Part shown: one piece after another, positions 2,102-44,887 of the stretch | Numbering within the stretch: the stretch's first letter is position 1 | How the letters are laid out: every line of letters begins with the position of its first letter | From: an uncultured Gammaproteobacteria bacterium | GTDB lineage: Bacteria; Patescibacteriota; Patescibacteriia; Magasanikbacterales; UBA922 | Assembly: GCA_964566225.1 (NCBI GenBank) | Contig: CAZMHV010000001.1 | Coordinates: forward strand, 149,963 to 213,962 | Direction: 5' to 3' | Length of the DNA stretch: 64,000 nt | Position numbers and translations under genes: made by a program | The notes under the pieces: generated by a model | The model's database searches: none | What the model saw: the letters and a program-made list of their open reading frames with translations, nothing else | Told to the model about the DNA's origin: nothing

Positions 2102-2126
2102 CATGGGTGATGATTTCACTCTCTAA

Positions 2127-2150
2127 CCCGGTTTTTCCGGGTTTTCGTTT
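2127..2150 (+). terminator. Intercistronic hairpin with T-tract between mreB and mreC (attenuator or partial terminator)
   Basis: AACCCGGTTTTTCCGGGTT followed by TTCGTTTCT. Confidence 0.45.
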
Positions 2151-2152
2151 CT

Positions 2153-2968: not shown

Positions 2969-2971
2969 AGC

Positions 2972-3505
2972 ATGAAATTTTTTCTTTCTCTTTTGACTAA
3001 AATTGTTTTTTTGCTGACGCTTGTTATTGCTCATTTTTTTATATCGTATTCTTTTGCGTTTCCTTATAATACTATCAATATTATCTTTGCCGCACTTATT
3101 TTATTTATGGTATTTTCAGAGACTGGAGTAATTGTGTGGATGTCTTTTTTTATGCATTTTTGTATTGAATTGTATAGTATCTCTCCATTTGGTGTTATTT
3201 TGCTGAGTAGTACTTTGAGTATTTTGTTTACGTATTGGCTTTTTCAAACCGTTTTTACCAACCGTTCATGGTATTCAACTATATTTTTAACGTTTGTTTC
3301 ATTATTTTTTTATCGGTTTCTTTCGTTGCTCTTTTTATTTCTTATATTTTTCTTTTTTCAAAAAAGTACAGAAATTTCTTGGGGGAATATGTTGATACTT
3401 TCTGGGTATGAGTTATTTTTTACAGAGATTTTGGTACTTATCAGTTATGCTTTTTTACCAAAATTTCGAAAAAGTTTAATACGCGTACGGTCAAAAGTTT
3501 TATGA
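2972..3505 (+). CDS. mreD: Polytopic membrane protein, probably MreD
   Basis: Five to six hydrophobic helices and no soluble domain. Position between mreC and PBP2 matches the conserved mreBCD-mrdA order. Confidence 0.55.
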   Translation: MKFFLSLLTKIVFLLTLVIAHFFISYSFAFPYNTINIIFAALILFMVFSETGVIVWMSFFMHFCIELYSISPFGVILLSSTLSILFTYWLFQTVFTNRSWYSTIFLTFVSLFFYRFLSLLFLFLIFFFFQKSTEISWGNMLILSGYELFFTEILVLISYAFLPKFRKSLIRVRSKVL

Positions 3506-5499
3506 AAAATTTGGGAACTCCATTTTTTGAAGGATTATTTGACGAGAGTTCGTACGAAGTTTCGTCAAAGCGAACAAAATTCAATTGGGTTGAGGAGTCT
3601 TTTGTATTTGATAAAGAAACAGGTAAACAGGTTGCCAGTATCCAGAGCAATGAGTATATTGGGAGTTCTCTCACGAGGCATAGACTCTATGCCTTCTTGG
3701 TTATTTTAGGTTGTATTTATGTTATTTTGTTGGTTAAAATAATTTTTTTGCAGCTGGTTCATGGTGGATCATATGCACAAAAAGCACAAGGTAACCGTCA
3801 ACGTATTATTCCTATTGCTGCTGAAAGAGGTCTTGTATTTGATCGCAATGGTGTGGAACTTACCAAAAATATTCCCAGTTTTTCGTTGGCTCTTATTCCA
3901 CAAGATTTGCCACGCAATTCTGCTGAACGTGAAAAAATTGTAACACGACTGGCAGAAATTACTCACCAAGATCAAAAAAGTATTCGTGATACACTTGAAG
4001 AATACGGCGCCTACAGCTACGAGTCTATTGTGATTGAAGAAGATATTGACTATGAAACAGCACTTCAACTACAAATTGAAAGTGCGGATCTGCCTGGTAT
4101 TTATATTAAGCGTGGAAGTAAACGCTTGTATATTTTGGGTGAAAATAGTCGCGGTGAGACAACAACGTCAACTTTGTTATCTCTCTCGCATATTTTAGGA
4201 TATGAGGGAAAATTGAATCGTAAAGAACTCGACAGTTTGTATACAAAAGGATATCTTCCGTCAGATACTATTGGCAAAAGCGGGATTGAAAAATATTATG
4301 AGACAGAGTTACGTGGAGTGTATGGAAAACAAAAAATCGAAGTCAATGCTGCTGGGAAACAACAATCGAGTATTGCTGAAGAAGCTCCTCACCCTGGGGC
4401 ACAACTCACGCTTTCGGTTGATACTATAATGCAAGAAAAGTTAGAAAGTATAATGAAAGATGAAATGAATAAAGCCGGCAAAAAACGTGGTGCTGGTGTG
4501 GTATTGAATCCAAATACTGGTGAAGTGTTGGCCTTGGTAAGTTTACCTTCTTTTGATAACAATGATTTCTCAGGAGGAATTTCTGTACAAAAATATAATG
4601 AATATATAAATGACCCTGATCATCCTTTATTTAACCGAGCTTTTGGTGGTAACTATCCTTCTGGATCAACGATCAAGCCGGTTTTTGCTGCGGCTGCATT
4701 GCAAGAAGGAATTGTTTCGCCTTCAACAGCATTTTTGAGTAATGGTGGTCTTCAGGTAGGCAAGTGGTTTTTTCCAGATTGGAAAGCAGGTGGTCATGGT
4801 ATGACCGATGTCCGTAAGTCTTTGGCTGAATCTGTCAACACATTTTATTATTACATAGGTGGTGGATACAAAGATTTTACAGGTATTGGTGTAGATAAAT
4901 TGGATGAATATTTACAAAAATTTCATTTTTCAAAGGCACTGGGTATTGATGTCCCTGGAGAAGTTGATGGTTTTGTCCCTACACGAGAGTCTCGAGAAAA
5001 ATTGGGTGAAAAGTGGTACGTAGGTGACACCTATAACTTGTCCATTGGACAGGGTGACTTACTCGTCACGCCTCTGCAGATTGCTTCGATGACATCATAC
5101 TTTGCCAATGGAGGAACAATGTATAGACCATTTGTTGCCAAGTCATTTACAGATCCTATTTCCAAAGTCTCTCGTGCTACTCCTCCCACTGTACTCACCA
5201 AAAATTTGGTGGACAAAAAAAATACTGAGATTGTTCGTCTCGGTATGAAAGATTGTGTCACTCAAGGCTCTTGTCGTCGACTGGCAACCCTTCCTTTTAG
5301 TGCCGCAGGCAAAACAGGAACGGCTCAGTGGAATGCTAACAAAGCCAATCATGCTTGGTTTACCTCTTTTGCTCCATTTGAAAATCCACAAGTTGTGGTA
5401 ACTATTTTGATAGAAGAAGGTGAAGAGGGAAGTCGTATTGCGGTACCTATTGCACATGAGTTTTATAAATGGTGGGGGACCTATGATAAAAAAAATTGA
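3502..5499 (+). CDS. mrdA: Penicillin-binding protein 2 (elongasome transpeptidase)
   Basis: N-terminal TM anchor plus PBP dimerisation domain, with transpeptidase motifs SxxK (STIKP), SxN-like SIGQGD and KTGTA. The 4-nt overlap with mreD suggests translational coupling. Confidence 0.9.
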   Translation: MKNLGTPFFEGLFDESSYEVSSKRTKFNWVEESFVFDKETGKQVASIQSNEYIGSSLTRHRLYAFLVILGCIYVILLVKIIFLQLVHGGSYAQKAQGNRQRIIPIAAERGLVFDRNGVELTKNIPSFSLALIPQDLPRNSAEREKIVTRLAEITHQDQKSIRDTLEEYGAYSYESIVIEEDIDYETALQLQIESADLPGIYIKRGSKRLYILGENSRGETTTSTLLSLSHILGYEGKLNRKELDSLYTKGYLPSDTIGKSGIEKYYETELRGVYGKQKIEVNAAGKQQSSIAEEAPHPGAQLTLSVDTIMQEKLESIMKDEMNKAGKKRGAGVVLNPNTGEVLALVSLPSFDNNDFSGGISVQKYNEYINDPDHPLFNRAFGGNYPSGSTIKPVFAAAALQEGIVSPSTAFLSNGGLQVGKWFFPDWKAGGHGMTDVRKSLAESVNTFYYYIGGGYKDFTGIGVDKLDEYLQKFHFSKALGIDVPGEVDGFVPTRESREKLGEKWYVGDTYNLSIGQGDLLVTPLQIASMTSYFANGGTMYRPFVAKSFTDPISKVSRATPPTVLTKNLVDKKNTEIVRLGMKDCVTQGSCRRLATLPFSAAGKTGTAQWNANKANHAWFTSFAPFENPQVVVTILIEEGEEGSRIAVPIAHEFYKWWGTYDKKN

Positions 5500-12475: not shown

Positions 12476-13711
12476 ATGCTCGACATGAAATTTATCCGTG
12501 AAAATGCGGAACTCGTAAAACAAAATTGTGTGAATCGTCATGTAAAGGTAGACATTGACGAACTTTTGCGTTTGGATGAACAACGAAGAGAAATAATTAA
12601 ATCACTCGAAGACTTACGTGCAGAAAAAAATAAAGGATCCAAAGGAAAACCAACTCCAGAAGAAATTGCCAAAATGAAAGAGCTCGGAGAAAAGGTGAAA
12701 GAACTCGAAGCCAAACAGATTGAAATTGATGCGCAGTACCGCGAAGTACTCATGCGTGTGCCAAACATGACACACAGTGAAACTCCAATTGGTGGTGAAG
12801 ATGATTTTACAGTACTCAGTAAAAAAGAACCACGTGATTTTGGTTTTACTCCCAAAGATCACGAAGAACTCATGCTCAATCTTGACCTCATTGATTTTGA
12901 ACGTGGTGCCAAAGTCGCTGGAGCCAAATTTTATTTTGCCAAAAATGACTTGGTTCGTCTCAATCAAGCCTTGCTCAATTACGGCATGGATGTCGTGACT
13001 GCACACGGATTTACCCTCATGGAAACTCCAGACATGGCCAAACAAGAAATTCTCGAAGGTGCAGGATTTAATCCTCGTGGAGAAGAAACACAAATTTATA
13101 CCATTCAAAACACAGACCTTTGTCTTGTAGGTACTGCAGAAATTACCGTGGGAGGTTTTCACAAAGACGAAATTCTCGATCTTTCAAACGGACCAAAAAA
13201 GTATGTGGCTATGTCACACTGTTTTCGTACCGAAGCTGGAGCGTACGGCAGAACCAGTAAAGGACTCTACCGTGTTCATCAATTTACCAAACTCGAAATG
13301 TTTATTTATTGTAAACCAGAAGAAAGTGAAGCCATGCACCAAGAATTGCTCGCTATTGAACGAGAGATCTGTGATGGTCTTGGATTCCCATATCGCGTGA
13401 TTGACATCGCCAGTGGCGATTTAGGAGGTCCTGCGTACCGCAAATACGACCTTGAGGCCTACATGACCATGAAACAAGACTACGGTGAAATTACTTCAAC
13501 CAGTAATTGTACAGACTACCAAGCCCGCCGCCTCAACATTCGTCACCGCAATGCCGAAGGAAATACTGAATTCGTGCACACACTCAATGGTACTGCCGTG
13601 GTACTCAGTCGTTTTCCCATTGCCATTTTAGAAAATTATCAAAATGAAGATGGAAGTATCACTGTTCCAGAAGTGCTCCGCAAATATATGGGAAAAGATA
13701 TTATTAAATAA
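12476..13711 (+). CDS. serS: Seryl-tRNA synthetase
   Basis: N-terminal long coiled coil plus a class II core (motif 2 FRTEAG..., motif 3 GSGLA-like region). Confidence 0.9.
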   Translation: MLDMKFIRENAELVKQNCVNRHVKVDIDELLRLDEQRREIIKSLEDLRAEKNKGSKGKPTPEEIAKMKELGEKVKELEAKQIEIDAQYREVLMRVPNMTHSETPIGGEDDFTVLSKKEPRDFGFTPKDHEELMLNLDLIDFERGAKVAGAKFYFAKNDLVRLNQALLNYGMDVVTAHGFTLMETPDMAKQEILEGAGFNPRGEETQIYTIQNTDLCLVGTAEITVGGFHKDEILDLSNGPKKYVAMSHCFRTEAGAYGRTSKGLYRVHQFTKLEMFIYCKPEESEAMHQELLAIEREICDGLGFPYRVIDIASGDLGGPAYRKYDLEAYMTMKQDYGEITSTSNCTDYQARRLNIRHRNAEGNTEFVHTLNGTAVVLSRFPIAILENYQNEDGSITVPEVLRKYMGKDIIK

Positions 13712-13715
13712 TTAC

Positions 13716-14441
13716 ATGAAAGACCAAACACTCGTGATTGTTCCAGGTTGGGGAGGAAGCCATGAAACATGGGAAAAATTTATGGTGGCTGCACGTCCGC
13801 ATTTTCAAGATGTGGTGTGTATTGATTTACCTTGTTTTGGTGGAAATGCTTGCCCAAAAACTGTGTGGGGTGTTGAGCAGTATGCTGAATACGTCAAATT
13901 AAAAATAAATAAAATTAAAGAAAATACATCAAACGAAATAATTCTCATGGGACACTCATTTGGTGGACAAGTTTCTGCCTACCTGGTTGCAAACAATCCC
14001 CACATTTGCGATAAATATATTCTCAATGCAGGAGCTGTATTTCGTCCCAGTCGTCCTATTCGTCGCGTATTTTTTTGGCTCTTGGCCAAGACAGGAAAAC
14101 TCGTTTTCAAAATTCCCATGATAGAACATGCTGGTGTGTGGGCCAAAAAAATGCTCTATAAAACTGCAGATTCACCAGATTATAGCAAAACCAGTGGCAT
14201 CCAAACCGAAATTTACAAAAAAATTATTCGCCAAGACCTCACCAATGAGCTCCCGAAAATCACCACTCCAACATTGATTGTGTGGGGAACCCTCGATAAA
14301 TATCTTCCGCTCAAAGATGGAATAAATGCCCAAAAACTCATCAAAGATTCAAAAATAGAAATCATTTCAGGCGGAACGCATGGTTTGCACCTGTTTAAAA
14401 CAGAAGAACTTTTACAAAAGGTAAAAGATTTTGTACAATAA
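13716..14441 (+). CDS. Alpha/beta-hydrolase fold protein
   Basis: Nucleophile elbow GHSFGG, and an HG-like segment near the C terminus. The start was moved to the first Met after the serS stop. Confidence 0.7.
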   Translation: MKDQTLVIVPGWGGSHETWEKFMVAARPHFQDVVCIDLPCFGGNACPKTVWGVEQYAEYVKLKINKIKENTSNEIILMGHSFGGQVSAYLVANNPHICDKYILNAGAVFRPSRPIRRVFFWLLAKTGKLVFKIPMIEHAGVWAKKMLYKTADSPDYSKTSGIQTEIYKKIIRQDLTNELPKITTPTLIVWGTLDKYLPLKDGINAQKLIKDSKIEIISGGTHGLHLFKTEELLQKVKDFVQ

Positions 14442-32356: not shown

Positions 32357-33721
32357 ATGTCAAATAAGCCACAAAAACCAATTCCTCCCCTCCCCTATCC
32401 TCTTTCACGCAAAACTCGGGTGGCTATTATGCTGACTTTGCTGAGTGTCTTTTTGATTTTGACTCCTGTTATTGTGATGTATGCCCGTGGATATACCTAT
32501 GATTTCAAAGAAAAAACCCTTATCCATGGAGGAGCCCTGAGTATTGAAACCACCCCCCGAGACGTTACTATTTCAATGAATGGTATCACCCTCAGTACTC
32601 TCCCCCCAGTGCGTTTACCAAATGTTTTGCCTGGGAATTATCACATAAAAATTGAAAAGGACGGATACTTCACTTGGGAAAAAAATATTTCTTTGGTGAG
32701 CAATCAAACCACCTATCTCCACGATATTGATTTGTTTCCTCAGCAAAAACCTGAAATGGCAATAACAAATGCCAACAATATTGTTCGTTTTTTTGCGTCT
32801 CCAAGTGCAAATGCTCTTTTGCTTTTGCGAAAACAGGGAGAAAATTTTGAATTGTCGCTCTACAACCCACTTCTTTCGCAAGAAACTTTTATCACCAAAA
32901 TTCTCTCTCCCAAGGTACCACCTCAAGTTGAGTGGTCACCAAGTGGTGAATTGATACGTATTGAATCAGTACGTGGAAATGAAAAAAACATCATGCTGCT
33001 CAATCCACTGAATCCAACCCTCATACAAACCAATAGTACCTCGAGTGAGGCAAACCAAATATTTCAATGGGAAGAAGGGTTACTTTCTACCGCACTTCTG
33101 TTGCAAGAAGGTACACAAATTCAAAGAATTGATTTAAATTCACTCCGTACGGTTTTTGATGTTACGCCATCTACTACCTCTTGGTACGCAGAAAATCAAA
33201 ATATTCTATGGCAGTATGCAGATCATACACTGAGTAAATACAAAAATGGAGTTGAAGTTTTTTCTGTACCTATCAAACAAAGTATCACTTCATTTTTGCA
33301 AACCAATCAAAACAGAATTCTGGCAACCAACGGAAGTAATTTGGTTATGATGGTACTCAAAGAAGATGGTACGGTAGAAGAAAATGAACTCCCCCTTTCG
33401 CATATATCCATGGTCAAAGACCAAGACTATTACTTAGCATGGCAAAATGGTGAACTGTGGGCTTTGTCTCCAGAAGGCACCGCGACACTTATCAATCGTT
33501 TCAGTGACGATATTATGTCAGTTATACCACTGACCAAAAGTGGCACCTTGCTGATTGCTACCCAAAATAAACTGTATACATTTCATCCTCGATACTATAT
33601 CACTCACGAACTTGTTTCCGCCGAAAATATTGAACGCGTGAGTGTTGATACCAGTAGTCGTCAAATCTTTTTTTTGGGAACGGTTGAAGGAAAAAATGCA
33701 GTTTGGAAGTTGGGGTATTAG
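32357..33721 (+). CDS. Membrane-anchored PEGA-domain protein with a large C-terminal beta-rich domain
   Basis: TM helix followed by a PEGA-like segment (DVTISMNGITLSTLPPVRLPNVLPGNYHIKIEKDGYFTWEK). The start was moved to the first Met outside the murA overlap. Confidence 0.55.
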   Translation: MSNKPQKPIPPLPYPLSRKTRVAIMLTLLSVFLILTPVIVMYARGYTYDFKEKTLIHGGALSIETTPRDVTISMNGITLSTLPPVRLPNVLPGNYHIKIEKDGYFTWEKNISLVSNQTTYLHDIDLFPQQKPEMAITNANNIVRFFASPSANALLLLRKQGENFELSLYNPLLSQETFITKILSPKVPPQVEWSPSGELIRIESVRGNEKNIMLLNPLNPTLIQTNSTSSEANQIFQWEEGLLSTALLLQEGTQIQRIDLNSLRTVFDVTPSTTSWYAENQNILWQYADHTLSKYKNGVEVFSVPIKQSITSFLQTNQNRILATNGSNLVMMVLKEDGTVEENELPLSHISMVKDQDYYLAWQNGELWALSPEGTATLINRFSDDIMSVIPLTKSGTLLIATQNKLYTFHPRYYITHELVSAENIERVSVDTSSRQIFFLGTVEGKNAVWKLGY

Positions 33722-36700
33722 GCAGCGTTACTTTGCCAGTCGTAGTTGGGAGTTGAATCAAGTTCTAAGTTTTCTTTTGTATTTTTTAGACTTACCCAGT
33801 ACACTTTCTCACCAGGGATAGTGTATTTTTGATTTACGTGACTTCCGCCAATGGTATCCACGTACTCGGTATCTCCAGGTCCACCGTAGGATACGAGTTG
33901 TCCATCGTACGGAGGAAGGATTTGGTTGGGTCGAAATTTGGCAGATACCACCAAATCTATGCCCATTTTGGTTGCTTTTTCTTGAGCGAGACGGAATAAC
34001 AGTTCATTACTGGTTTGAACAGAAGCGTCACTGCGGTGATAGCTGTGTTCCATGTTAATAACAGGTTTCTCCGCTTCTTCATCGTACAAAATTCTCATAA
34101 TGGCACGAGAAACAATATCGCCGGCTGCATCACGAACTACCACTGTTTTTACTTTGCCATCCATTAAGTAAGAAATAAGATTTCGGTTGAGACTTGGAGT
34201 ACCGTTCACATTCTGACAGGAACCAACCACATCAGTTCCCATACGTAACATAAGGTCAGGGTCTTCGGTTTCTTCAGCATAGAGTCCAGCAGTGGTATTT
34301 TGCACTGCTGGTTTTTCTTTTTGGAGTTCTCCAATGACGGTTTCCATATCACTCACATCTTGTAAAAATTGTGAGCCTTCGGTAAACGCTGCTTTTATTT
34401 CTGCCAGTAATTCAGATATTTTCTTTTCTTGCATGCCAGTCGAAGTTTTTTCTTTTATTATTCCTTCTTTGAATTGCTCCACTTTGAGTGACAAAAGTTT
34501 CATTGTGTTGTACAAAGCCACTGCTGTTTTTTCTGAAGCACTCAGATTTTTTTCTTTTTCAAAAGCGGCAACTTTGTCTTGCCAAACTTTTCTTATTTTG
34601 GCGCGTTCGATATCAGTACTCTCTAAGTACTGTTCCATAACTTCTTTAAATTCACCTTCAACGTGACTATGACGAATAGCTTCGGTAATAAATTCTTTGA
34701 CACGTTGTTTTACCATCATTTCACTATTTTCTGAAGTATCCGTCACTTCTCCTTTGTGGGAGAGTCGTGAGTCCATTTTCCACAATTTTTCTAAACGTGC
34801 GTCTCCGTTGAAAACTTTATCTAAATGTTCTCGGTGTTCATATCTTACGTGTGAAAGATTTCCTTTGGCTACTGCTTCAATGAATTTTTGAAACAAGGCA
34901 CGTTGGTGAGGGTATGCTTCCAATTTTGCTAAGTACACTACTACCAACTGAGGATTTTTGAATCTTTCAAGAAAACGATTGACTTCTTCTTTGCTAAGTT
35001 CAACTCCACACTTTTCGGCAAACAATTTTGGTACAAGATCTGAGAATTCATTGACAACTTGCTCTAGTTGCTGCTGTAGCACCTGAGCCGCTTGCTTTTT
35101 GTGCTCTGCCAAATCACGACCTTCAGGACCACGTGCTATTTGAGATTGTTTTTTTCTTATTTTTTGTTCAACTTTTTTGTATTGTTTTTCGTCATCTTGC
35201 ACAGTTTGTAGTTCTGCTGAAAGTGCCACTATCTCAGCTTGCAGGGGCTCTGACCATTCTTGTTTTTTTGCATTCAAAAAGTTACCATAATTTTGGTGTA
35301 CTTCCAAAAGTTTATTATTCATGAGAGTGAGTCCCTGACGAAAAAATGAACCTTGCAAAAAGGAACAACTTCTGAGGAGTTGACTCATTTCAAAAACTTT
35401 TTTCTTACACTCAGGGACTGCTTCCATAAGAGGAGTCGATCGATTGACAAAATTTCTTATATCATTTGCTTGTATCCCTTCACGAGTGATCTTATCTTGA
35501 TCTATTTTCTCATGCATTTCAACTAAAAAATATAAAAATCTGTCTTTATCTGTCTGTTTCTTGAGTACTTGTCCACTAAACATGTGGCCTGAAAACTCTT
35601 GTGCTTCTTTCACACTAAAATTAAAACTATTTGCTAGGAGGTGAAGTACTGGATATGTAGCTTCAGGGAAAGATTTAAGAATTTCTGCACTACAAGCCAG
35701 TGGAGACTGTTCAAAGATGTGAAATAAACGCAAACGTAAATTTTTATTGGCCAGAGCTTCTTGCGCTCCAATCATAGATAAAATAGAACGAATTTTATCT
35801 TGAGGAGAAAGAATTCTGAAATTTTCTTTTGCTCCTGTTACTTCCTCTGCTTTTTTTATGTGCTTTGCTATTTCTCCTACTTGTGCCCAGGCAAAGTCAA
35901 AATCTCTGTCAGTATTCAAATGTTTTTTTATAATATCGGCAATAACTTTACCACCTTGTTCTTCAAGCAAAGTCATTCTTCTGAGCAAGGATTCCCGCAT
36001 CTTCAAAGCAACATCAGTAGGCATTCTGTAACAGAGTGACCAGTCAAATGGTTGCTCTGGATTTTCGATTGCTTCTTGGAGAGCAGACTTAAATTTATTT
36101 ACATAGATTTCACAGCTTTCTTTGCCGCCTGTTTTAAATAAAAATTCTGACTCTGTATAATTATTGACACGGTGCTTAATACTCAAATGGTCTTCGGGCT
36201 GCTTTTCTGAAGATACAATCTCTAGGTTGTTACTTTGACCAATATAACGTGCCAAACAGGTTTGTTCTTGATCAGGAGTAAGCTCAATCACGCCTGCTTC
36301 CTGGTGCCAAAAAATGAGTCTTGCAGCCATACCATCGGTACAGATAGGAACCAGAGCGTCGGCTATTTTTTGACGGTATTCGGTAAGTCTTGTATCACTA
36401 AATGAAGTATCTAACAGTATCTCTACAACAGATACTTCTTGAGAGTCAATAATTCTTTGAACTATTTGGGGTATGAGTTCATTATCAACCTTATTTTTAC
36501 CATACGTGCTTCGAAGTATAATAAGTAAATTTTCAGCAGTTCCTCTTTCTAAAAGAGAACGGACAAAAAGAGAGTCGTCTTCTCGTGAAAATTCAACATT
36601 TTGATTTTGATGTCCAAGTCCACCAAGTATATCCATGAGCAGAGCTGAGCTTCCTACTTCAGCTATTCTCTTTTTTAAAATTTGTTGCTCTTGGGATGAA

Positions 36701-38883
36701 AAAGTGCAATGCATCCACGTATGTCCATTATACCCTGCACTCTGTGTGGATTTGTAAATAATATTTACACTTGCCTCATCTGTAGTAGGCAAAATCATTT
36801 TACAAATTCGTTCAAAGTGTCCTGGTCCTAATTGTAGACTATACTCATTACCCACTTTAATCTGATTCATAATCATTTGTGCTACCGCAGTATCACCTGT
36901 TGCGAGCATTTTTTCTATAATTTCTTTGCGAATATCTGAGCATTCTTTGGGTGAGGCAAAAGAATCTTCATAGGAACGCAATGAAAGATGGAGTTGAAAC
37001 CAAAATTTTGGATTTTCAAGTTTAAGAAACCCTTGGAGTAACTCTTTAAATGAAGCTTCTGAATTTTTGTCAATTTCTATACCAAAAAATTCTTTAAAAA
37101 AGGCAACCTCACCAGTTGTTTTTTTAGTACGACGAGAATAACCATGTTGGTGATACCCTTCATAAGTATTTTTAAACTGTCTAACAATTGGTTCAAAAAA
37201 TAAACATGATTTTGCATACTCTCTACGTAAAAATTCTTTTGTTTCTTTGCTGATCGCTGGTGATGCAAGTATTGGAGAAAAAAATTCTATTTTTTTGTTT
37301 TCATATTCAGGGTTCACAACGAGGCCAGGGTCAACAACTAACGCTTTGATTTGTTCCAAAAAAAGAAGACACCATTCTCTCAGAGCGTTCTCGACTTCTT
37401 CTTTTGTAAACTCTGGAAATTTTTCTTTGTACAATAAAATGGATTCAAAAAACTGAATCCTTGTTCGATAGGTATGAAGGTTACTTCGAGAGGAGTCCTG
37501 AGATACCTTTTGATTTTCAAAAAATTCTCTTTTTTCTTCTGGAGTTACGCCCCACAGTTCACCATTGAGAAGAGTGGAAAATGGATAGTCTGCTCTATTG
37601 GCTGCCATTGCTGCTTCTATCTGTTCATGTGAATTATATAACTGAAGAGCCAGATTGTCTTTTAGAATTTCATATTCGTCTGAAGTAATAGACACATAGC
37701 TTAAAAATTTGTCTGACAAAGGAAGACACCCTCTACCCACAGCAGCAAAAACCCTTTTAATGAGTTCAATTTTCTTTTTTGCAGGGAGCGCTCCTATTTC
37801 TTTATAAAAAACATCAGCATGGTTAATTATTTCTTTGGGATTCCACTGGTAGTATGCTTCAAAAAGTTGAACTCGAGTTTGGTCATCAATATAATCCGGA
37901 TTGAGTCCCTCGGAGGAATAATCTTCGAGAACAAACTCAGCCACCACTGCATTTCGTTGAGGAATATCACGTAATCTCTTGAGAACTTCTACTTGCTCGT
38001 CGTAGCTGCCCTTTCGTTGGTGTGGAGCAGGGGTATTAAGATCAATAACAGTAATAGCATAAATATCTGGATACTGTTTCAAAAATGCATTTTTTTGTTC
38101 AGTGATGAGCCTCTTTGCTGATTGTTTTGACTCTGAGTAAAGTAAAACTTCTTCTTTTTTTCTAAAATGTATTTGAATAGCTTTTTCAATCATTTTGGCT
38201 GTTTCGACATTTTGGTCAGGAGAAGCTTGCCAAAGCAAAAGAACTTGGTCAAGCATGTGTTCACGAACCTTTTCATCTGTCTCAATAGAAATTCTATGAA
38301 GACCATGACTTCCCAGAAGATCCATTATTTGTTGATTCAATATATCTCTTATAGGTTTATCTACCTGTCGCCATAATGTAGTATTCTCTCTTTGGGCCTG
38401 TATTGAAATAGCGTGTATGCTCTGTATTTCGGCCAACGGGAAGCTTTTTGGATCAGAATGTTTTCTTTGAGAGTACTGTTTTATCATTTTTTTCACTCTG
38501 TTTTCAAGTTCTCTAATGATTTTTGGATTATCTGTCACAGACAATTCTTGCTGTCTTTTTTGTTCCTGCCAATTTTTTACTGTTTCAATCGGTGCCGATA
38601 AGAATTTTCCTACTCTACCGAGAAACGAATTTTCAATCCGAGCGAGCTCTGCTTTGATTTCTTCGAGTTCACGTACCGTATCATGGTCTTCGGACATACC
38701 CGGGAGTGACTCCAGGGCATGACGAAGCTGAGCGCGCAGGTCTGCGGCTTGATCGGTAATGTGAGATTCGGCTTCTGAGAGTTTCTCTTTATCGGTAAGT
38801 TCAACTGGCTCAACTTTCTTTTCGTCGACACTTTCTAGATCAACTTCTCTAATTTTTTCTTCTTGGTCTGTTGGCATAGACAA
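33718..38883 (-). CDS. Giant hypothetical protein (1721 aa), soluble, largely alpha-helical/repetitive, with no recognised catalytic motif
   Basis: A single uninterrupted 5.2-kb ORF of native codon composition. It has an acidic low-complexity N terminus and a conserved-looking C-terminal ~200 aa (DVVGSCQNVNGTPSLNRNLISYLMDG...YGGPGDTEYVDTIGG). Confidence 0.7.
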   Translation of the reverse strand: MSMPTDQEEKIREVDLESVDEKKVEPVELTDKEKLSEAESHITDQAADLRAQLRHALESLPGMSEDHDTVRELEEIKAELARIENSFLGRVGKFLSAPIETVKNWQEQKRQQELSVTDNPKIIRELENRVKKMIKQYSQRKHSDPKSFPLAEIQSIHAISIQAQRENTTLWRQVDKPIRDILNQQIMDLLGSHGLHRISIETDEKVREHMLDQVLLLWQASPDQNVETAKMIEKAIQIHFRKKEEVLLYSESKQSAKRLITEQKNAFLKQYPDIYAITVIDLNTPAPHQRKGSYDEQVEVLKRLRDIPQRNAVVAEFVLEDYSSEGLNPDYIDDQTRVQLFEAYYQWNPKEIINHADVFYKEIGALPAKKKIELIKRVFAAVGRGCLPLSDKFLSYVSITSDEYEILKDNLALQLYNSHEQIEAAMAANRADYPFSTLLNGELWGVTPEEKREFFENQKVSQDSSRSNLHTYRTRIQFFESILLYKEKFPEFTKEEVENALREWCLLFLEQIKALVVDPGLVVNPEYENKKIEFFSPILASPAISKETKEFLRREYAKSCLFFEPIVRQFKNTYEGYHQHGYSRRTKKTTGEVAFFKEFFGIEIDKNSEASFKELLQGFLKLENPKFWFQLHLSLRSYEDSFASPKECSDIRKEIIEKMLATGDTAVAQMIMNQIKVGNEYSLQLGPGHFERICKMILPTTDEASVNIIYKSTQSAGYNGHTWMHCTFSSQEQQILKKRIAEVGSSALLMDILGGLGHQNQNVEFSREDDSLFVRSLLERGTAENLLIILRSTYGKNKVDNELIPQIVQRIIDSQEVSVVEILLDTSFSDTRLTEYRQKIADALVPICTDGMAARLIFWHQEAGVIELTPDQEQTCLARYIGQSNNLEIVSSEKQPEDHLSIKHRVNNYTESEFLFKTGGKESCEIYVNKFKSALQEAIENPEQPFDWSLCYRMPTDVALKMRESLLRRMTLLEEQGGKVIADIIKKHLNTDRDFDFAWAQVGEIAKHIKKAEEVTGAKENFRILSPQDKIRSILSMIGAQEALANKNLRLRLFHIFEQSPLACSAEILKSFPEATYPVLHLLANSFNFSVKEAQEFSGHMFSGQVLKKQTDKDRFLYFLVEMHEKIDQDKITREGIQANDIRNFVNRSTPLMEAVPECKKKVFEMSQLLRSCSFLQGSFFRQGLTLMNNKLLEVHQNYGNFLNAKKQEWSEPLQAEIVALSAELQTVQDDEKQYKKVEQKIRKKQSQIARGPEGRDLAEHKKQAAQVLQQQLEQVVNEFSDLVPKLFAEKCGVELSKEEVNRFLERFKNPQLVVVYLAKLEAYPHQRALFQKFIEAVAKGNLSHVRYEHREHLDKVFNGDARLEKLWKMDSRLSHKGEVTDTSENSEMMVKQRVKEFITEAIRHSHVEGEFKEVMEQYLESTDIERAKIRKVWQDKVAAFEKEKNLSASEKTAVALYNTMKLLSLKVEQFKEGIIKEKTSTGMQEKKISELLAEIKAAFTEGSQFLQDVSDMETVIGELQKEKPAVQNTTAGLYAEETEDPDLMLRMGTDVVGSCQNVNGTPSLNRNLISYLMDGKVKTVVVRDAAGDIVSRAIMRILYDEEAEKPVINMEHSYHRSDASVQTSNELLFRLAQEKATKMGIDLVVSAKFRPNQILPPYDGQLVSYGGPGDTEYVDTIGGSHVNQKYTIPGEKVYWVSLKNTKENLELDSTPNYDWQSNAA

Positions 38884-39157: not shown

Positions 39158-42100
39158 TTACACTACAATACTCACTAATTTTCCTTTGACATAAATCACT
39201 TTTTGAGGAGTTTTGCCATCGAGAAATTTTTGAACATTTTCTTGTGCTATTGCTTGTGCTGTAATATCTTCTTCAGTAATATTTGCATCAACTTCGAGAC
39301 TGGCACGAACCTTGCCATTGACCTGCACCACAATCGTGAGTGTATCTGAGACGATTTTTGCAGCATCATGAGTTGGAAATGGTTGAATCGTTACAGAATC
39401 GGTGTGTCCTTGATTTGCCCACATTTCTTCGGCAATATGTGGTGCAAATGGTGCCAAAATTTTGATAAACAGTTCAAAGTGTTCCGGTGCAATAGTTTCT
39501 TCTTTGCTGAGCACGTTGACGAGTTCCATCATTTTGGCAATCGCTGTGTTATATTGCATATTTGATAGGTCTTCACCAACTTTTTTGACAGTGAGGTGAA
39601 CGGTTCGTTCGGCTTCGGATGAAGGTGCTGCTGATGCAGTCACTTTTTCTTGCAATTTCCACACACGATCAAAAAATCTGCGTACGCCTTTGACACTGTC
39701 CGTATTCCAAGGCTTGGTTTGCTCGAGTGGACCCATGAACATTTCATACACGCGCATGGTGTCTGCGCCGTATTCGTTGATCACATCCGTTGGATTGATC
39801 ACATTCCCCCATCGTTTACTCATTTTGCGATTGTCTTCGCCGAGAATAAGACCTTGGTGACGAGTTTTGGTAAATGGTTCGTCAAAGGTGATATAACCAG
39901 CATCGTACAAAACTTTGGTAAAGAAACGTGAGTAGAGCAAATGTCCATTCACATGTTCTTCTCCGCCAAGATAGAAATCTACTGGCATCCATGTTTTGAG
40001 AGCCTCAGGGGAAGCAAACGCACCATCATTTTTTGGATCAAGATAACGATAATAATACCATGATGAACACATGAATGTGTCGAGGGTGTCCGGTTCACGT
40101 TTCCAACCTTTGCCATATTTTTCTTCGACTCCTGCATTGAATGATTCAGCATACATGAGTGGAGATTGACCGGTTGGTTTGAAGTCGACGTCGTCGGGGA
40201 GGATGACCGGAAGGTCTGTTTCGGGAAGTGCTTTCAAATCCATGCGAACTGGCGCGAGAACTTCTTGCAATAATTGAGGGAATTCTACAAAACCATCTTG
40301 CGCACCAAAGTGCCCAGCATTGCGCATACGTGTAACACGTGCAAAAGGCAAATGCTGATTGAAAAATTGTTGGGTAGAAGCCAGATCAATGTATGGATCA
40401 GTAGTAGAAAGAATAACCACAACTTCACCTACATTTTCTTGCACTTTTTGGAAATCAACAGGAGTACTCATGAATGTTTTGAGCATCTCCCACATGTTGT
40501 CTCCATCACAAAAATTACGAATGTTGGTGTACCAAATATCTGTTGGCAAAGTCGGTGCAATGAGCACAAGCTTACGCAATTTGTGAGTCTCTGCTAATTT
40601 TAAAGCATTCCAACAACTGAGTGATCGTCCAATAACAATACTATTTCCATCTCCGACTACTGGTTCTGCAACAGCTTGCCATTTTTCAAAGACGGGTAAA
40701 TTTGCTTCGGGAAGTTCAGGCGTAGAAACGTTGATGTTTTTTGCTCTCAACTTTTCTCCAAGCCATGGATGAAAATGATCAGCAGGACTACTTCCCCATG
40801 CATGAAGTTGCAACACTGAACTTGGTGCCTGTTGGTATTGTTCCAATAATTCTGGCGAAACATTTTCAACATGAAGCATCGGAATCGGTGCACCCCAAAA
40901 ACGCTGGCGAGACACAGACCAGTCGCGGAGTTTGTATTGCACTTTGCGGGTGCCGATTTCACGTTGTTCGAGGTGTTCGATGATTTTCTTTTTGGCTTCT
41001 TCCACAGAAAGACCGTTCAAAAAATCTGAATTTGTGAGGTGACCAGATCCGGTGTGAGGTTGGTTGGTAATTTCCATATCGGGTCCTTTCACCACTTGAC
41101 GAATTGTTAAACCAAACTTCGTTGCAAACTCAAAATCCCGCTCATCATGCGCAGGCACAGCCATAATCGCACCGGTTCCGTAGGATGCAAACACATAATC
41201 TGCCATCCACACAGGAATCTCTTCACCTGAAACAGGATTTACAGCCTTGAGGCCCTTGAGTTCAACACCTGACTTTTCTTTTTGGGTTTGACGATCCATG
41301 TCTGTTTTCAATTTTGTTTCATCAATATATTTTTTTACTTCATCCCAATTCGTGATCAAAGATTGCAATTCGGGAACCAAAGCATGTTCTGGAGCAACCA
41401 CCAAATACGTTGCACCAAAAATAGTATCTGGGCGTGTGGTAAACACTCGAATATTTTTGGCAGTTTGCAAAACAGGAAAATCAACTTCTGCACCTTCACT
41501 TCGTCCAATCCAATTGCGCTGGCGCATTTTGGTTTCTTCGGGCCAGTCGATGCGATCAAGTCCTTCAAGAAGTTTGTCAGCGTAGTCAGTGATTTTTAAA
41601 TACCATTGTTCCATGGGGCGTTGCACCACAACCGTGTCACAGCGTTCACATTTTCCTTCACCAGTCACCTGTTCGTTGGCGAGCGCAGTTTTACAACTAT
41701 CACACCAATTTACATTTTGATTTTTGCGATATGCCAAACCTTGTTTGTACATGAGGAGAAAAAACCACTGTGTCCATTTGTAATAATCACTATTGTGACT
41801 CCCCACTTCTCTGTCCCAGTCAACTGAAATTCCGAGGCCTTTGATTTGACTCCGAAAGTTATCAATGGCAGCGTTAGTACTCACGCGTGGATGTACATTG
41901 GTTTTAATCGCATAATTTTCAGCAGGCAAACCAAAAGAATCCCAGCCAATCACCTGGAGCACCTTTTTGCCCATCATACGTTGATAGCGCGCATAAATGT
42001 CACACGCTGTGTACACTTCGGCATGACCCACGTGAAGACCGCTTCCTGAAGGGTATGGAAGCTGTGGGAGGATGTACATTTTATTTTCGGGAGTAACATT

Positions 42101-42181
42101 GGTGGGTGTCTTATACAGGTTTTGCTTTTCCCACTCTGCTTGCCACTTTGGTTCAATTTCTTTGGGGTTGTATTGATTCAT
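39158..42181 (-). CDS. leuS: Leucyl-tRNA synthetase carrying a ~215-aa inserted RBBP9/YdeN-type serine hydrolase domain
   Basis: HIGH (HVGHAE), CP1 editing motifs (TTRPDT, AHDERD) and KMSKS (KMSKR) are all present. Residues ~436-655 align to the PF06821 family (HFHPWLGEKL, GRSLS, TTDPYI, NAGHFGAQDGFVEFP). Confidence 0.9.
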   Translation of the reverse strand: MNQYNPKEIEPKWQAEWEKQNLYKTPTNVTPENKMYILPQLPYPSGSGLHVGHAEVYTACDIYARYQRMMGKKVLQVIGWDSFGLPAENYAIKTNVHPRVSTNAAIDNFRSQIKGLGISVDWDREVGSHNSDYYKWTQWFFLLMYKQGLAYRKNQNVNWCDSCKTALANEQVTGEGKCERCDTVVVQRPMEQWYLKITDYADKLLEGLDRIDWPEETKMRQRNWIGRSEGAEVDFPVLQTAKNIRVFTTRPDTIFGATYLVVAPEHALVPELQSLITNWDEVKKYIDETKLKTDMDRQTQKEKSGVELKGLKAVNPVSGEEIPVWMADYVFASYGTGAIMAVPAHDERDFEFATKFGLTIRQVVKGPDMEITNQPHTGSGHLTNSDFLNGLSVEEAKKKIIEHLEQREIGTRKVQYKLRDWSVSRQRFWGAPIPMLHVENVSPELLEQYQQAPSSVLQLHAWGSSPADHFHPWLGEKLRAKNINVSTPELPEANLPVFEKWQAVAEPVVGDGNSIVIGRSLSCWNALKLAETHKLRKLVLIAPTLPTDIWYTNIRNFCDGDNMWEMLKTFMSTPVDFQKVQENVGEVVVILSTTDPYIDLASTQQFFNQHLPFARVTRMRNAGHFGAQDGFVEFPQLLQEVLAPVRMDLKALPETDLPVILPDDVDFKPTGQSPLMYAESFNAGVEEKYGKGWKREPDTLDTFMCSSWYYYRYLDPKNDGAFASPEALKTWMPVDFYLGGEEHVNGHLLYSRFFTKVLYDAGYITFDEPFTKTRHQGLILGEDNRKMSKRWGNVINPTDVINEYGADTMRVYEMFMGPLEQTKPWNTDSVKGVRRFFDRVWKLQEKVTASAAPSSEAERTVHLTVKKVGEDLSNMQYNTAIAKMMELVNVLSKEETIAPEHFELFIKILAPFAPHIAEEMWANQGHTDSVTIQPFPTHDAAKIVSDTLTIVVQVNGKVRASLEVDANITEEDITAQAIAQENVQKFLDGKTPQKVIYVKGKLVSIVV

Positions 42182-42201: not shown

Positions 42202-43008
42202 TTATTCTAAATTATTATTTACCATATCCAAAACTCTTTTGTGGAGAAGTGGATTTGAGATAACATAATCTTGTCTGCCGCGTTTCCATGGATTGCCATG
42301 ACTATCACTTACCACAGCACCAGCCTGTTCACAAATAAATAAATTTGGAAGTAAGTCCCAATCAAGGCCAGCATTTCCAAATGCAAAATCAATTGATCCT
42401 TTTGCAATATACGACAGCATTCCTGCACATCCAAAGTTTGACATGGCAGCATTGGTACTCAGAGCAAAATTTGATACGGCTGCTCTGTATTTTTCAAAAT
42501 AATCACCATATAAACCAAAAGGAGAACAACGAAACATTATCCCATACCCTTTTTCAAGGGTATCTGTATTGTTCACCATAATTTTTTTGTCATTCACAAA
42601 TGCACCCACTCCTTGCTCAGCAAAAAAAAGTTCATCAGAAATTGGATGGTATACCGCAGCCATATGCATGGTTCCATTTTTCAAAACAGCAATCATCACT
42701 GCCCAGACTGGAATACCAATTGCAAAATTTCTCGTGCCATCAATGGGATCAATCACCCATTCATATTCAGTCTCAGCTGCATTGATATCTTCGGTAAGCT
42801 CTTCACTTTTAATATGATGCGTTGGATACTTGGAATGAATTTGCTTTACCAAAAATTCACTTACTGCTAAATCAGCTATCGTAACAAAGTCTTTGCTATC
42901 TGCTTTGGTTTGAATTTCTACTCCTTGATAAAAATAAGGTTTGGCAATATCCCCCGCTTCACGAATAATCTGCTTTAAAAAGTCTCTCATATCAGAATTT
43001 GGTGTCAA
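42202..43008 (-). CDS. Inositol monophosphatase family protein (SuhB-like)
   Basis: Metal-binding motifs WVIDPIDGT and a WAVMIAV...GGMHMAAV-type core. Confidence 0.8.
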   Translation of the reverse strand: MTPNSDMRDFLKQIIREAGDIAKPYFYQGVEIQTKADSKDFVTIADLAVSEFLVKQIHSKYPTHHIKSEELTEDINAAETEYEWVIDPIDGTRNFAIGIPVWAVMIAVLKNGTMHMAAVYHPISDELFFAEQGVGAFVNDKKIMVNNTDTLEKGYGIMFRCSPFGLYGDYFEKYRAAVSNFALSTNAAMSNFGCAGMLSYIAKGSIDFAFGNAGLDWDLLPNLFICEQAGAVVSDSHGNPWKRGRQDYVISNPLLHKRVLDMVNNNLE

Positions 43009-43094
43009 AAATATACCCGGTATGATACAAAATTTTCTCTAAAATTGCAAGAGTTTTGGCTTTTTTGGCTTGACAGAGAGAGAAAAATAGTATA

Positions 43095-43375
43095 GTGTAC
43101 GACTGGCTCAAAAGGAGGGAGCCAAGCTATGGTGGTTGCCACCATGCATTTCACGTCTCTCGAAGATGCGGTCACGTTTTTGTTGACCGCAGCGGCAGTG
43201 TTTGGAGTTCTGCTCAGCGTGGGAATTTCACGACGCAACAAGCGTGACCCACGACGACTGCGACTACCGGGCGAGGAATAAGTCCCCTCGCCACCCCCGA
43301 GAGACTCTTCCCCTAGGCTTTGTCGAGCCCAGAGGAAGAAAAAGATCCCTGTCTATGAGGGATCTTTTTTATTTT
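43095..43375 (+). ncRNA. Candidate GC-rich structured small RNA; alternatively a 50-aa membrane peptide ORF at 43129..43281
   Basis: Promoter-like TTGACA-N17-TAGTGT, four or more stable hairpins in ~250 nt, ~55% GC against a ~38% genome, and an intrinsic terminator at 43341..43375. No + strand gene lies downstream. Confidence 0.35.
43341..43375 (+). terminator. Bidirectional rho-independent terminator, shared by the small + strand unit and minus-strand gdhA
   Basis: Hairpin AGATCCCTGTCTATGAGGGATCT flanked by T-runs on both strands. Confidence 0.75.
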
Positions 43376-43379
43376 TGTA

Positions 43380-44612
43380 TTATCCACGAGCCTTCATGGC
43401 ATCGCTGACTCTTTCTACTGCCCGGACAAATGCAGCTACACGCATATTCACATTATATTTTTCTTTGGTTGCCCAGACTTCATTAAAGGCACGCACCATG
43501 ATTGTTTCAAGTTTTGCCAAAACTTCTTCTTCGGTCCAATAGTAATTGGAAGCATTTTGTACTTGTTCAAAATAACTGACGGTCACACCACCGGCATTGG
43601 ACAAAATATCTGGTACAAACAAAATTCCTTTGCTGTGCAAAATTTCATCGGCTTCTGGAGTGACTGGGCCATTGGCAAGTTCTACAATCATCTTGGCTTG
43701 AATACGTGCGGCATTTTCACCAGTAATAACATTTTCAAGTGCGGCTGGAACAAGAATGTGGACACCGAGTTCGAGCAATGCTTCGTTGCTCACCGCTTCA
43801 CTGCCAGCAAAGCCAACCACAGAACCAGTTTGTTCTTTGTGTGATTCAAGTGCGGCGACATCAAGACCATTCATATTCATCACACCACCTTTGGAGTCAC
43901 TCGCAGCAACAATTTTGTATCCTTCATGGGCCAAAATTTTCGCCATAAAACTTCCAGCATTGCCAAACCCTTGTACTGCCACAGTCACGTCACTCGCATT
44001 CCATCCCATTTTTTTGACTGCTTCTTTGGTTACATACACACCACCTTGCGCAGTAGAAAATCCACGTCCAGCAGAACCACCCAGGCTGAGGGGTTTGCCC
44101 GTAATCATTCCTGGTGCATGTTGCCCCACCAACTTTTCGTATTCATCGAGCATCCAGCCCATGATTTGTGGTGTGGTATATACGTCTGGTGCAGGCACAT
44201 CTTGTGTTGGGCCAAGGTACTTATAGATTTGACCAATGTAACCACGAGAGAGACGTTCGAGTTCAGCTTCGGAAAGTTCTTTGGGATTAACAATAATACC
44301 ACCTTTGCCACCACCAAGTGGAATACCCACCACAGAACACTTCATGGTCATCCAAAATGACAAAGCTTTTACTTCGTCGAGACTCACATTCCAGTGATAG
44401 CGAATACCACCTTTGTATGGGCCACAGGCATTGTTGTATTGACTTCGAAATCCCGTAAACACTTTGACCTCTCCACTATCCATTTTTACAGGGATAGATA
44501 CGGTGAGCACACGATTTGGCTGCTGGAGCTCTGCCAAAATATTTTTATCAAGATTGAGTGTAGAGGCTGCCAAAGAAAGCTGCTTCATGGCATTTTCAAA
44601 TGGATTATTCAT
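43380..44612 (-). CDS. gdhA: Glutamate dehydrogenase
   Basis: Glu/Leu/Phe/Val dehydrogenase signature (KGGIRYH, GGGKGG) and a Rossmann region (VAVQGFGNAG); start set at MNNPFENAMKQ. Confidence 0.9.
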   Translation of the reverse strand: MNNPFENAMKQLSLAASTLNLDKNILAELQQPNRVLTVSIPVKMDSGEVKVFTGFRSQYNNACGPYKGGIRYHWNVSLDEVKALSFWMTMKCSVVGIPLGGGKGGIIVNPKELSEAELERLSRGYIGQIYKYLGPTQDVPAPDVYTTPQIMGWMLDEYEKLVGQHAPGMITGKPLSLGGSAGRGFSTAQGGVYVTKEAVKKMGWNASDVTVAVQGFGNAGSFMAKILAHEGYKIVAASDSKGGVMNMNGLDVAALESHKEQTGSVVGFAGSEAVSNEALLELGVHILVPAALENVITGENAARIQAKMIVELANGPVTPEADEILHSKGILFVPDILSNAGGVTVSYFEQVQNASNYYWTEEEVLAKLETIMVRAFNEVWATKEKYNVNMRVAAFVRAVERVSDAMKARG

Positions 44613-44887
44613 ATGCAATACAAATAGAAGTAAGTACACAGTAGTGTACCTAAAACAGTCAACCACCGTCAAGTATGGTGAGGAAAAATAAAACAGCCCC
44701 TGCAGAGGGCTGTTTCCGAGCTCGTTGTTCCCCCCTGCTGTTGCAACAACAGAGAAGAGAAGTTTTTTTTCTTTTTGCCTTTAGGTAAATTTTTCCCATT
44801 GGCAATGTTTGTTTGATTTGTGATAATTATACTCTTTTTTTTGGTTTTAATCAAACCAAGTTTTACACAGTTTCTACACAGTATAAA

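Follow-up and report, generated by a model that had tools for sequence, protein, structure and literature searches.

Proofreading in translation is classically illustrated by synthetases that possess additional hydrolytic domains. The hydrolytic editing domains found in or on aminoacyl-tRNA synthetases (aaRS) include CP1 of leucyl-tRNA synthetase (LeuRS) and of its isoleucyl (IleRS) and valyl (ValRS) counterparts, INS/YbaK of ProRS, N2 of ThrRS, AlaRS/AlaX and B3/B4 of PheRS, and provide precedents for a second hydrolytic domain that sits in a synthetase core and acts on an aminoacyl ester. To our knowledge, these domains include no α/β hydrolase, nor does any of them work through a Ser-His-Asp acyl-enzyme. 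Here we describe a patescibacterial leuS gene whose product, a LeuRS of 1007 residues, carries a YdeN/RBBP9-type (PF06821) serine hydrolase nested within it. The gene lies in a 64,000-nucleotide stretch of DNA analysed as a whole (hereafter the window; positions 149,963 to 213,962 of contig CAZMHV010000001.1, GTDB order Magasanikbacterales). Unlike the aaRS editing precedents, the window LeuRS keeps its canonical CP1 site beside the nested hydrolase.

Both halves of this protein have well-described relatives. With the bacterial-type LeuRS of Thermus thermophilus (1H3N), Escherichia coli (4AQ7/4ARC) and Neisseria gonorrhoeae the window LeuRS has in common the HIGH and KMSKS motifs, the ZN1 knuckle, a CP1 domain following ZN1, and the anticodon-binding and C-terminal domains; it differs from them in having a 221-residue hydrolase in place of a hairpin tip and in lacking the leucine-specific domain. 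With YdeN (1UXO) and RBBP9 (2QS9, 7OEX) the nested domain shares the fold, the positions of Ser, Asp and His, and the H-G/A turn. YdeN and RBBP9 are free-standing proteins of about 190 residues, whereas the window copy is nested inside another enzyme, is only about 21% identical to them, contains an additional lid helix of some 12 residues as well as an N-terminal linker helix, and shows GRSLS at the nucleophile elbow where they have G/AHSxG.

The hydrolase domain nested in LeuRS

The gene and the domain occupy the following positions in the window.

39158–42181, minus strand: leuS, an open reading frame of 1007 residues encoding a bacterial-type class Ia LeuRS with a nested hydrolase (open reading frame; PF00133, PF13603, PF08264 and PF06821; E = 6e-206 to T. 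thermophilus LeuRS, 1H3N)
40214–40876, minus strand: nested YdeN/RBBP9-type (PF06821) α/β serine hydrolase domain, residues 436–656 (motifs, Pfam, profile alignment, structural model and Foldseek)

The insert comprises 221 residues (436–656) between GAPIPM (residues 430–435) and LPVILPDDV (from residue 657). An earlier reading of the window by eye (the original prediction) had recognized it as about 215 residues at 40217–40876; the insert itself stands, while its exact extent is three bases longer. Among solved structures, T. thermophilus LeuRS is the best relative. The alignment to this structure is interrupted exactly at the insert (query residue 439 corresponds to T. thermophilus 440 and query 651 to 446), the insert replacing a hairpin tip that reads HCEACG in T. 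thermophilus LeuRS (residues 439–446). None of the solved LeuRS chains in the structure-database comparison spans the insert. The insertion point, flanked by WGAPIPM and LPVILP, is exactly a hairpin turn; insert-free relatives have a plain hairpin of 15 residues without cysteines at this site. The E. coli enzyme likewise has 15 residues here, not the 17 or so initially estimated for it. Since an identical LeuRS protein is encoded on an independently assembled Logan contig (run SRR16481186) and the G+C fraction is similar in the insert (0.413) and in the remainder of leuS (0.436), the insert is real and not an assembly chimera.

The proposed family and fold of the insert were both borne out. 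Searched alone against Pfam, the insert matched PF06821 with E = 3.8e-13 and 50.2 bits (cutoff 22), the match covering residues 458–638 and profile positions 3–167 of 172. A profile built from 42 homologous inserts aligned with Bacillus subtilis YdeN (E = 7e-31) and with human RBBP9 (E = 5e-22). The AlphaFold2 (AF2) model of the insert, derived from the same 42-insert alignment, has a mean predicted local distance difference test score (pLDDT) of 96.1 and a predicted template modelling score (pTM) of 0.92. When this model was used as a Foldseek query, YdeN (1UXO) came first, followed by six RBBP9 chains (7OEX, 2QS9), with template modelling scores of 0.79–0.83 normalised to the target and root-mean-square deviations of 2.5–2.8 Å over about 194 columns (E = 6e-15 for YdeN and about 1e-11 for RBBP9). 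We detected no homology between the insert and the known editing folds (CP1, INS/YbaK, N2, AlaX, DTD and B3/B4); it matched α/β-hydrolase families and structures only. Judging from the profile matches and models, the insert is a genuine PF06821 α/β serine hydrolase, predicted to form a domain of its own on a two-stranded stalk.

The predicted catalytic residues are located as follows.

40802–40804, minus strand: His460, in the H-A/G turn after the first hydrolase strand, by analogy the oxyanion-hole region (invariant in 62 inserts)
40616–40630, minus strand: nucleophile elbow GRSLS, residues 518–522, with the putative nucleophile Ser520 at 40622–40624 (serine in 62 of 62 inserts; directly after strand 514–519)
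40397–40399, minus strand: Asp595, the putative triad acid in TTDPYI (aspartate in 30 of the 62 inserts, the window clade; after strand 584–592)
40310–40312, minus strand: His624, the putative triad histidine in AGHF (invariant in 62 inserts; after strand 615–619)

The motifs first noticed by eye are indeed present (HFHPWLGEKL at residue 469, GRSLS at 518, TTDPYI at 593 and NAGHFGAQDGFVEFP at 621), and their suggested pairings with YdeN were reproduced residue for residue by HMMER. Ser520 is aligned to the serines of YdeN AHSLG and RBBP9 GHSSG, and Asp595 to YdeN SKDDQI and RBBP9 STDDPF. In the full-length AF2 model Ser520, Asp595 and His624 each come after the C terminus of a strand, the placement demanded by the fold, in agreement with the proposal of an intact triad. 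Ser520, His624 and His460 are invariant across the 62 inserts, which are only 19–47% identical to the window insert. The other insert clade has Asp or Glu three residues before the position of Asp595, at the same strand end. In free-standing homologues the nucleophile serine is present in 99% and the triad aspartate in 98%. Given the invariance of Ser520, His624 and His460, we predict with high confidence that the nested hydrolase is catalytically active.

The reaction would follow the usual acyl-enzyme mechanism, in which Ser520 would attack the substrate, His624 and Asp595 would relay the proton, and the oxyanion would be held by the His460-Ala461 turn and the backbone after Ser520. The guide to the substrate is RBBP9, the one relative with defined biochemistry, which is an aminopeptidase for hydrophobic and aromatic N-terminal residues (PMC8866121). 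RBBP9 requires a free α-amine and is trapped as an acyl-enzyme of Leu/Ile, Met, Phe, Tyr or Trp; the authors remark that the bond it cleaves may be that of an amide, ester or thioester (PMC8866121). It has also been identified as an activator of valacyclovir, an L-valyl ester, according to the citation of Shenoy 2020 in PMC7730578. By analogy, the nested hydrolase would most likely act on an α-aminoacyl ester or amide whose amine is free and whose side chain is hydrophobic. Tyr597/Ile598 are aligned to, and resemble, the cage residues Phe140/Leu141 of RBBP9, and Ile598 is conserved in 57 of the 62 inserts. The amine anchor of RBBP9, Glu108, has no clearly conserved counterpart; by ungapped back-counting it would correspond to Glu565, which is variable among the inserts shown.

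The host synthetase and the mounting of the domain

Conservation in the host was assessed against the 120 nearest LeuRS homologues, the best of the 8000 LeuRS returned by a search with the full-length protein, with about 70% core identity to the window LeuRS. The host motifs, its domains and the two strands that carry the insert are listed below.

42023–42034, minus strand: HIGH motif, HVGH, residues 50–53 (H50, G52 and H53 invariant, V51 near-invariant)
41633–41710, minus strand: ZN1, or CP1-hairpin, zinc knuckle, residues 158–183, with Cys160, 163, 178 and 181 (cysteines near-invariant)
40967–41518, minus strand: CP1 editing domain, residues 222–405, with TTRPDT (248–253) and AHDERD (344–349) intact (PF13603, 217 bits, profile positions 1–185 of 185)
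39812–39826, minus strand: KMSKS motif, KMSKR, residues 786–790, with no leucine-specific domain before it (motif search, homologue conservation)
39272–39604, minus strand: anticodon-binding domain, residues 860–970, followed by the C-terminal domain to residue 1007 (PF08264, 67 bits; alignment to 1H3N)
40868–40894, minus strand: GAPIPMLHV, residues 430–438, a conserved LeuRS strand leading into the first strand of the insert-bearing stalk (strand 435–438, pLDDT 90)
40187–40243, minus strand: return strand of the stalk and LeuRS re-entry, MDLKALPETDLPVILPDDV, residues 647–665 (strand 649–651, pLDDT 91–93; Asp656 in 61 of 62 inserts)

All the LeuRS elements originally reported for this 1007-residue protein were found (HVGH at residue 50, TTRPDT at 248, AHDERD at 344 and KMSKR at 786). 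The class I core matches PF00133 with 170 bits, and the alignment to 1H3N reaches the last residue, so the C-terminal domain is present. Invariance extends to M787–R790 of KMSKS and to two aspartates of CP1, D346 and D349; K786, the ZN1 cysteines and the T-rich motif are near-invariant. Moreover, the HIGH, KMSKS, ZN1 and CP1 editing residues are equally conserved in LeuRS with and without the insert. The host LeuRS is thus fully equipped and its CP1 editing site is intact, and the possibility that the insert replaces a decayed CP1 site was accordingly rejected.

The differences from other bacterial-type LeuRS, apart from the insert, are traits of the lineage. The leucine-specific domain is missing, residues 580–636 of the T. 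thermophilus enzyme having no counterpart, and the short spacing before KMSKS is shared by 115 of the 120 relatives and is not tied to the insert. There are no cysteines in the hairpin or the second knuckle (residues 430–438 and 647–700). All four cysteines that make up the second zinc site (Zn2) of T. thermophilus LeuRS are missing from this lineage. Compensation by the insert for the lost leucine-specific domain or the Zn2 zinc was considered and rejected, since insert-free relatives lack both too. The protein had been estimated to exceed ordinary bacterial LeuRS by 150–200 residues; the extra length is real and amounts to about 200 residues relative to its own insert-free relatives (785–865 residues), because the whole lineage is also devoid of the leucine-specific domain.

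The full-length AF2 model (pLDDT 88.6, pTM 0.85) has linkers with pLDDT of 90–93, and strands 435–438 and 649–651 form the stalk. Eight residues (L490, K537, E586, I598, R615, E640, L649 and D656) are conserved only in hydrolases nested after the WGxPIP motif, here termed site 3, and four of them (K537, E586, R615 and E640) set the window insert apart from YdeN and RBBP9. Three adjacent parallel strands begin, at their N termini, with K537, E586 and R615, which places these residues on the other face of the domain from the triad. For this reason we infer that the hydrolase packs on the stalk through its "bottom", with the active site facing outward. The net charge is −9 for the insert and −7 for CP1, which binds the CCA end; charge therefore does not discriminate as to RNA binding.

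Distribution and evolution of the nested domain

The nested hydrolase is not a singularity of the window. It is present at the same site in 64 of the 120 nearest LeuRS homologues, whose named sources are all Patescibacteria (Magasanikbacteria, Dojkabacteria, Nomurabacteria, Roizmanbacteria and "Patescibacteria group"), and many insert-bearing LeuRS are 1100–1340 residues long and have further domains. The suggested survey of LeuRS orthologs thus revealed an architecture widespread in Patescibacteria. The remark in the original prediction that no characterised LeuRS is known to have such an architecture needs a qualification: the protein is no singleton, although we found no paper describing a synthetase, LeuRS or other, that contains a nested α/β hydrolase or the co-nested domains described below, in a literature search whose full-text coverage did not extend to all journals. 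Insert-bearing LeuRS sequences are public with automatic annotations; their main interest lies in the modular pattern across the lineage and in a possible new proofreading chemistry. Some of these proteins already bear automatic double names from JGI, and NCBI gives the name "alpha/beta fold hydrolase" to two full-length LeuRS (P0029 and P0036), the nested domain having misled product naming. In a locus scan of one-per-species genomes with a 321-residue query (the insert plus flanks), the insert was found in 25 of the 80 closest loci. The best insert-bearing locus was only 57% identical over the query, hence the window species is not among the representatives.

Pfam coordinates define three nesting sites in LeuRS.

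Site 1, early CP1, at about PF13603 position 20: Ham1/ITPase or PF06821 hydrolase
Site 2, late CP1, at about PF13603 position 146: NUDIX most commonly, otherwise S-adenosylmethionine (SAM)-methyltransferase, HAD or PF06821 hydrolase
Site 3, after WGxPIP: PF06821 hydrolase only

The closest architectural parallels to the window protein are patescibacterial LeuRS with CP1-nested NUDIX, Ham1/ITPase, HAD or methyltransferase domains (P0028, P0072, P0066 and P0081), known as database sequences only. They represent the same lineage and the same nesting principle, and their CP1-nested domains are often joined with the site-3 hydrolase in one polypeptide; the window LeuRS has the site-3 hydrolase only, whereas the extra domains of these other LeuRS occupy the two CP1 sites. 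CP1-nested NUDIX, SAM-methyltransferase, HAD or Ham1/ITPase domains were recorded in P0002, P0006, P0028, P0066, P0072, P0081, P0112, P0122, P0131, P0145 and P0198; this lineage sometimes has a second or tandem PF06821 hydrolase as well, and reaches 1342 residues.

An exhaustive HMMER search with the insert gave 1099 matches at E ≤ 1e-3. Long proteins account for 17 of the 150 best matches. Ten of them were scanned against Pfam and turned out to be nine LeuRS and one FtsY-type GTPase, and the remaining seven either aligned with LeuRS or had the WGxPIP motif; neither IleRS, ValRS, MetRS nor any other synthetase was found as a host among these 17. The GTPase (P0232, 909 residues) is of the FtsY/SRP54 type and combines an N-terminal PF06821 hydrolase with a histidine-phosphatase domain, representing another essential housekeeping protein with the same passenger family.

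The window insert is 36–40% identical to free-standing proteins of 204–230 residues (P0128, P0129/P0273) and only 19–25% identical to the second insert clade at the same site; being closer to the former, it points to repeated capture or replacement. In a neighbour-joining tree of 214 domains, computed without support values, nested and free-standing copies are interleaved, and in a neighbour-joining tree of LeuRS cores, likewise without support values, the insert states are scattered. The core of the window LeuRS is about 70% (maximum 74.7%) identical to insert-free LeuRS, compared with 58–68% to LeuRS having only an insert of the same clade and 64–71% to those having NUDIX too. No meaningful co-variation with the presence of the insert was detected at LeuRS core positions. 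Together, the scattered insert states, these identities and the lack of core co-variation indicate that the hydrolase comes and goes, having been captured or replaced more than once without remodelling of the host.

Free-standing homologues are common in Patescibacteria and DPANN archaea. We inspected the gene context of a small sample of 11 such loci, three of which have NUDIX genes within about 2.5 kb of the PF06821 gene. In Woesebacteria-type contigs (L090–L092, about 2037–3597) a tight same-strand cluster of PF06821, NUDIX and PNPOx-like genes forms an operon, and in another locus (L096, 2408–3549) the PF06821 gene comes directly after a HAD gene, with HIT, NUDIX and β-CASP nuclease genes nearby. 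NUDIX and HAD are also families co-nested in LeuRS. These contexts hint that the family is linked with the very housekeeping hydrolases found alongside it in LeuRS. Apart from two loci considered in the next section, the remaining ones feature glycolysis or unrelated genes.

Possible roles of the nested hydrolase

A complete esterase/aminopeptidase-type enzyme has repeatedly entered an essential enzyme of the smallest known bacteria, as have NUDIX, ITPase, HAD and methyltransferase enzymes in relatives. Whatever its role, the nested hydrolase may offer a route to the physiological substrate of the YdeN/RBBP9 family. A passenger enzyme with LeuRS as its carrier is favoured over a cis-editing site by the nesting at three sites, the presence of unrelated co-tenants, the patchy occurrence among relatives, the absence of detected co-adaptation in the host and the intact CP1. 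The fusion of the same family to FtsY and the NUDIX and HAD neighbours of free-standing copies also count for this reading, in which we place about even confidence. A single gene would then yield a bifunctional protein, namely LeuRS with a complete YdeN/RBBP9-family hydrolase in the β-turn of a surface hairpin of the catalytic core. Aminoacylation and CP1 editing would continue as usual, whereas the hydrolase would be a housekeeping enzyme acting on a diffusible substrate, not a geometry-dependent cis-editing site for tRNA-Leu, and would gain co-expression or co-localisation from its carrier. A role dependent on reaching the CCA end should not tolerate placement at three such different LeuRS positions. 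If the hydrolase is indeed a passenger, it illustrates how organisms with reduced genomes accommodate housekeeping enzymes in permissive loops of abundant proteins, and the three LeuRS sites would be naturally validated domain-insertion sites, useful for engineering.

Several observations weigh against the passenger interpretation. A pure carrier model leaves the near-exclusive choice of LeuRS as host unexplained, and this choice hints at a leucine- or tRNA-Leu-specific link. The confidently modelled linkers (pLDDT 90–93) and the pTM of 0.85 suggest that the hydrolase may be rigidly held, and the conservation of K537, E586, R615 and E640 only in site-3 copies indicates a site-specific constraint. 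Among the 11 free-standing copies, one comes directly after a TyrRS gene and another directly before a tRNA_bind gene with a class II synthetase nearby, so that these contexts also hint, more weakly, at a link with translation. It is the near-exclusive LeuRS host and these two translation-linked contexts that keep alive both an editing or deacylase role and a role in leucine supply.

According to the first of these alternatives, the nested hydrolase is a third proofreading site, which would act in cis to deacylate mischarged tRNA-Leu, or in trans on further aminoacyl-tRNAs, or would hydrolyse a non-cognate aminoacyl-adenylate, by Ser-His-Asp chemistry beside CP1. The chemistry of the family suits an aminoacyl ester: RBBP9 needs a free α-amine and traps Leu/Ile/Met/aromatic acyl-enzymes (PMC8866121), and it hydrolyses the L-valyl ester of a nucleoside analogue, as Shenoy 2020 is cited in PMC7730578. 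The repeated capture of the domain almost exclusively by LeuRS, the free-standing copies adjoining TyrRS and tRNA_bind genes, and the confidently modelled stalk also speak for proofreading. Yet the window LeuRS and almost every other insert-bearing LeuRS retain their CP1 editing residues, leaving no missing function to make good; the hydrolase occurs at three very different LeuRS positions, and the CP1 sites also accommodate NUDIX, ITPase, HAD and methyltransferase domains. In addition, close relatives dispense with the insert, no co-adapted LeuRS surface was detected, most free-standing contexts are unrelated to translation, and the fold is unrelated to any known editing domain. We thus consider this role possible but doubtful. 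The extra (trans-)editing function put forward in the original prediction is accordingly not favoured, given the intact CP1, the same hydrolase at three places and unrelated enzymes at the CP1 sites. It is rather unlikely, in our view, that the two ideas combine, the nested hydrolase being a mechanistically new aminoacyl-ester hydrolysis site that works on LeuRS chemistry through a Ser-His-Asp acyl-enzyme (on mischarged tRNA, or on toxic or non-cognate aminoacyl-adenylate-like molecules), LeuRS a modular three-site carrier, and the co-nested NUDIX, ITPase and HAD domains a means of clearing nucleotide by-products of that reaction. If true, action on aminoacyl-tRNA or aminoacyl-adenylate would amount to a novel form of quality control.

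Amino-acid biosynthesis is generally missing in Patescibacteria, and an auxotrophic epibiont might benefit if the nested domain were an N-terminal aminopeptidase or an esterase and released leucine, or further hydrophobic amino acids, from peptides it scavenges, close to the synthetic site of LeuRS. Such leucine supply would explain the strong preference for LeuRS as a host, and it fits the aminopeptidase activity of RBBP9 on hydrophobic and aromatic N-terminal residues and its trapping of Leu/Ile (PMC8866121). Our data, however, show no sign of leucine specificity, the position back-counted to RBBP9 Glu108 (Glu565) is variable, and neither the NUDIX, ITPase, HAD and methyltransferase co-tenants nor the patchy distribution would be explained; we regard this role as improbable. 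A non-catalytic structural, binding or regulatory block, for example one compensating for the missing Zn2 zinc or leucine-specific domain, would be in line with the site-3-specific conserved residues on the face opposite the triad, but despite deep divergence neither the catalytic Ser and His nor the His460 turn varies, and the acid is kept too, which makes this option highly improbable. An artefact or selfish insertion (assembly chimera, frameshifted gene pair, intein or mobile element) can practically be dismissed: although a conserved site of an essential gene is the usual location of inteins, the open reading frame is continuous, the identical protein comes from an independent assembly, homologous architectures number in the dozens, the G+C fraction is even along the gene, PF06821 spans almost the whole insert with no Hint or endonuclease family matched in Pfam, and the junctions (M435|L436 and D656|L657) are not splicing residues.

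Another α/β hydrolase gene of the window adjoins a synthetase gene. The seryl-tRNA synthetase gene (serS; 12476–13711, plus strand) is followed, with a 68-nucleotide overlap, by an Abhydrolase_1/S33-type hydrolase of 265 residues (13644–14441, plus strand). This order is kept in the closest metagenome relatives (50–72% identity), whereas in distant relatives only the downstream Mur-ligase gene stays linked. We therefore rejected this pair as a second synthetase–hydrolase link, the conserved partner being the Mur ligase; the adjacency to serS is probably inherited gene order.

In the neighbourhood of leuS, an inositol-monophosphatase-family gene (42202–43008, minus strand) lies just upstream on the same strand, and the gap of only 20 nucleotides makes it likely that the two are co-transcribed. 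Directly downstream of leuS is an open reading frame of 1721 residues (33718–38883, minus strand) for which Pfam gave no match at E ≤ 1e-3; a gene of near-equal size (1719 residues called) likewise comes after leuS on the Logan contig assembled independently. Further upstream on the leuS strand is a Glu/Leu/Phe/Val (ELFV)-dehydrogenase-family gene (43380–44672, minus strand). The intergenic stretch between the dehydrogenase and phosphatase-family genes (43009–43379) is GC-rich (0.50–0.53), with a clean terminator hairpin after the dehydrogenase and an RNA fold z-score of −7.9. It has no Rfam match, the only Rfam match in the window being one tRNA. It also contains an open reading frame of 50 residues (43129–43281, plus strand; MVVATMHFTSLEDAVTFLLTAAAVFGVLLSVGISRRNKRDPRRLRLPGEE) that includes a hydrophobic segment and is preceded by an AAGGAGG-like site, so that the stretch could encode a small membrane protein or an unclassified RNA.

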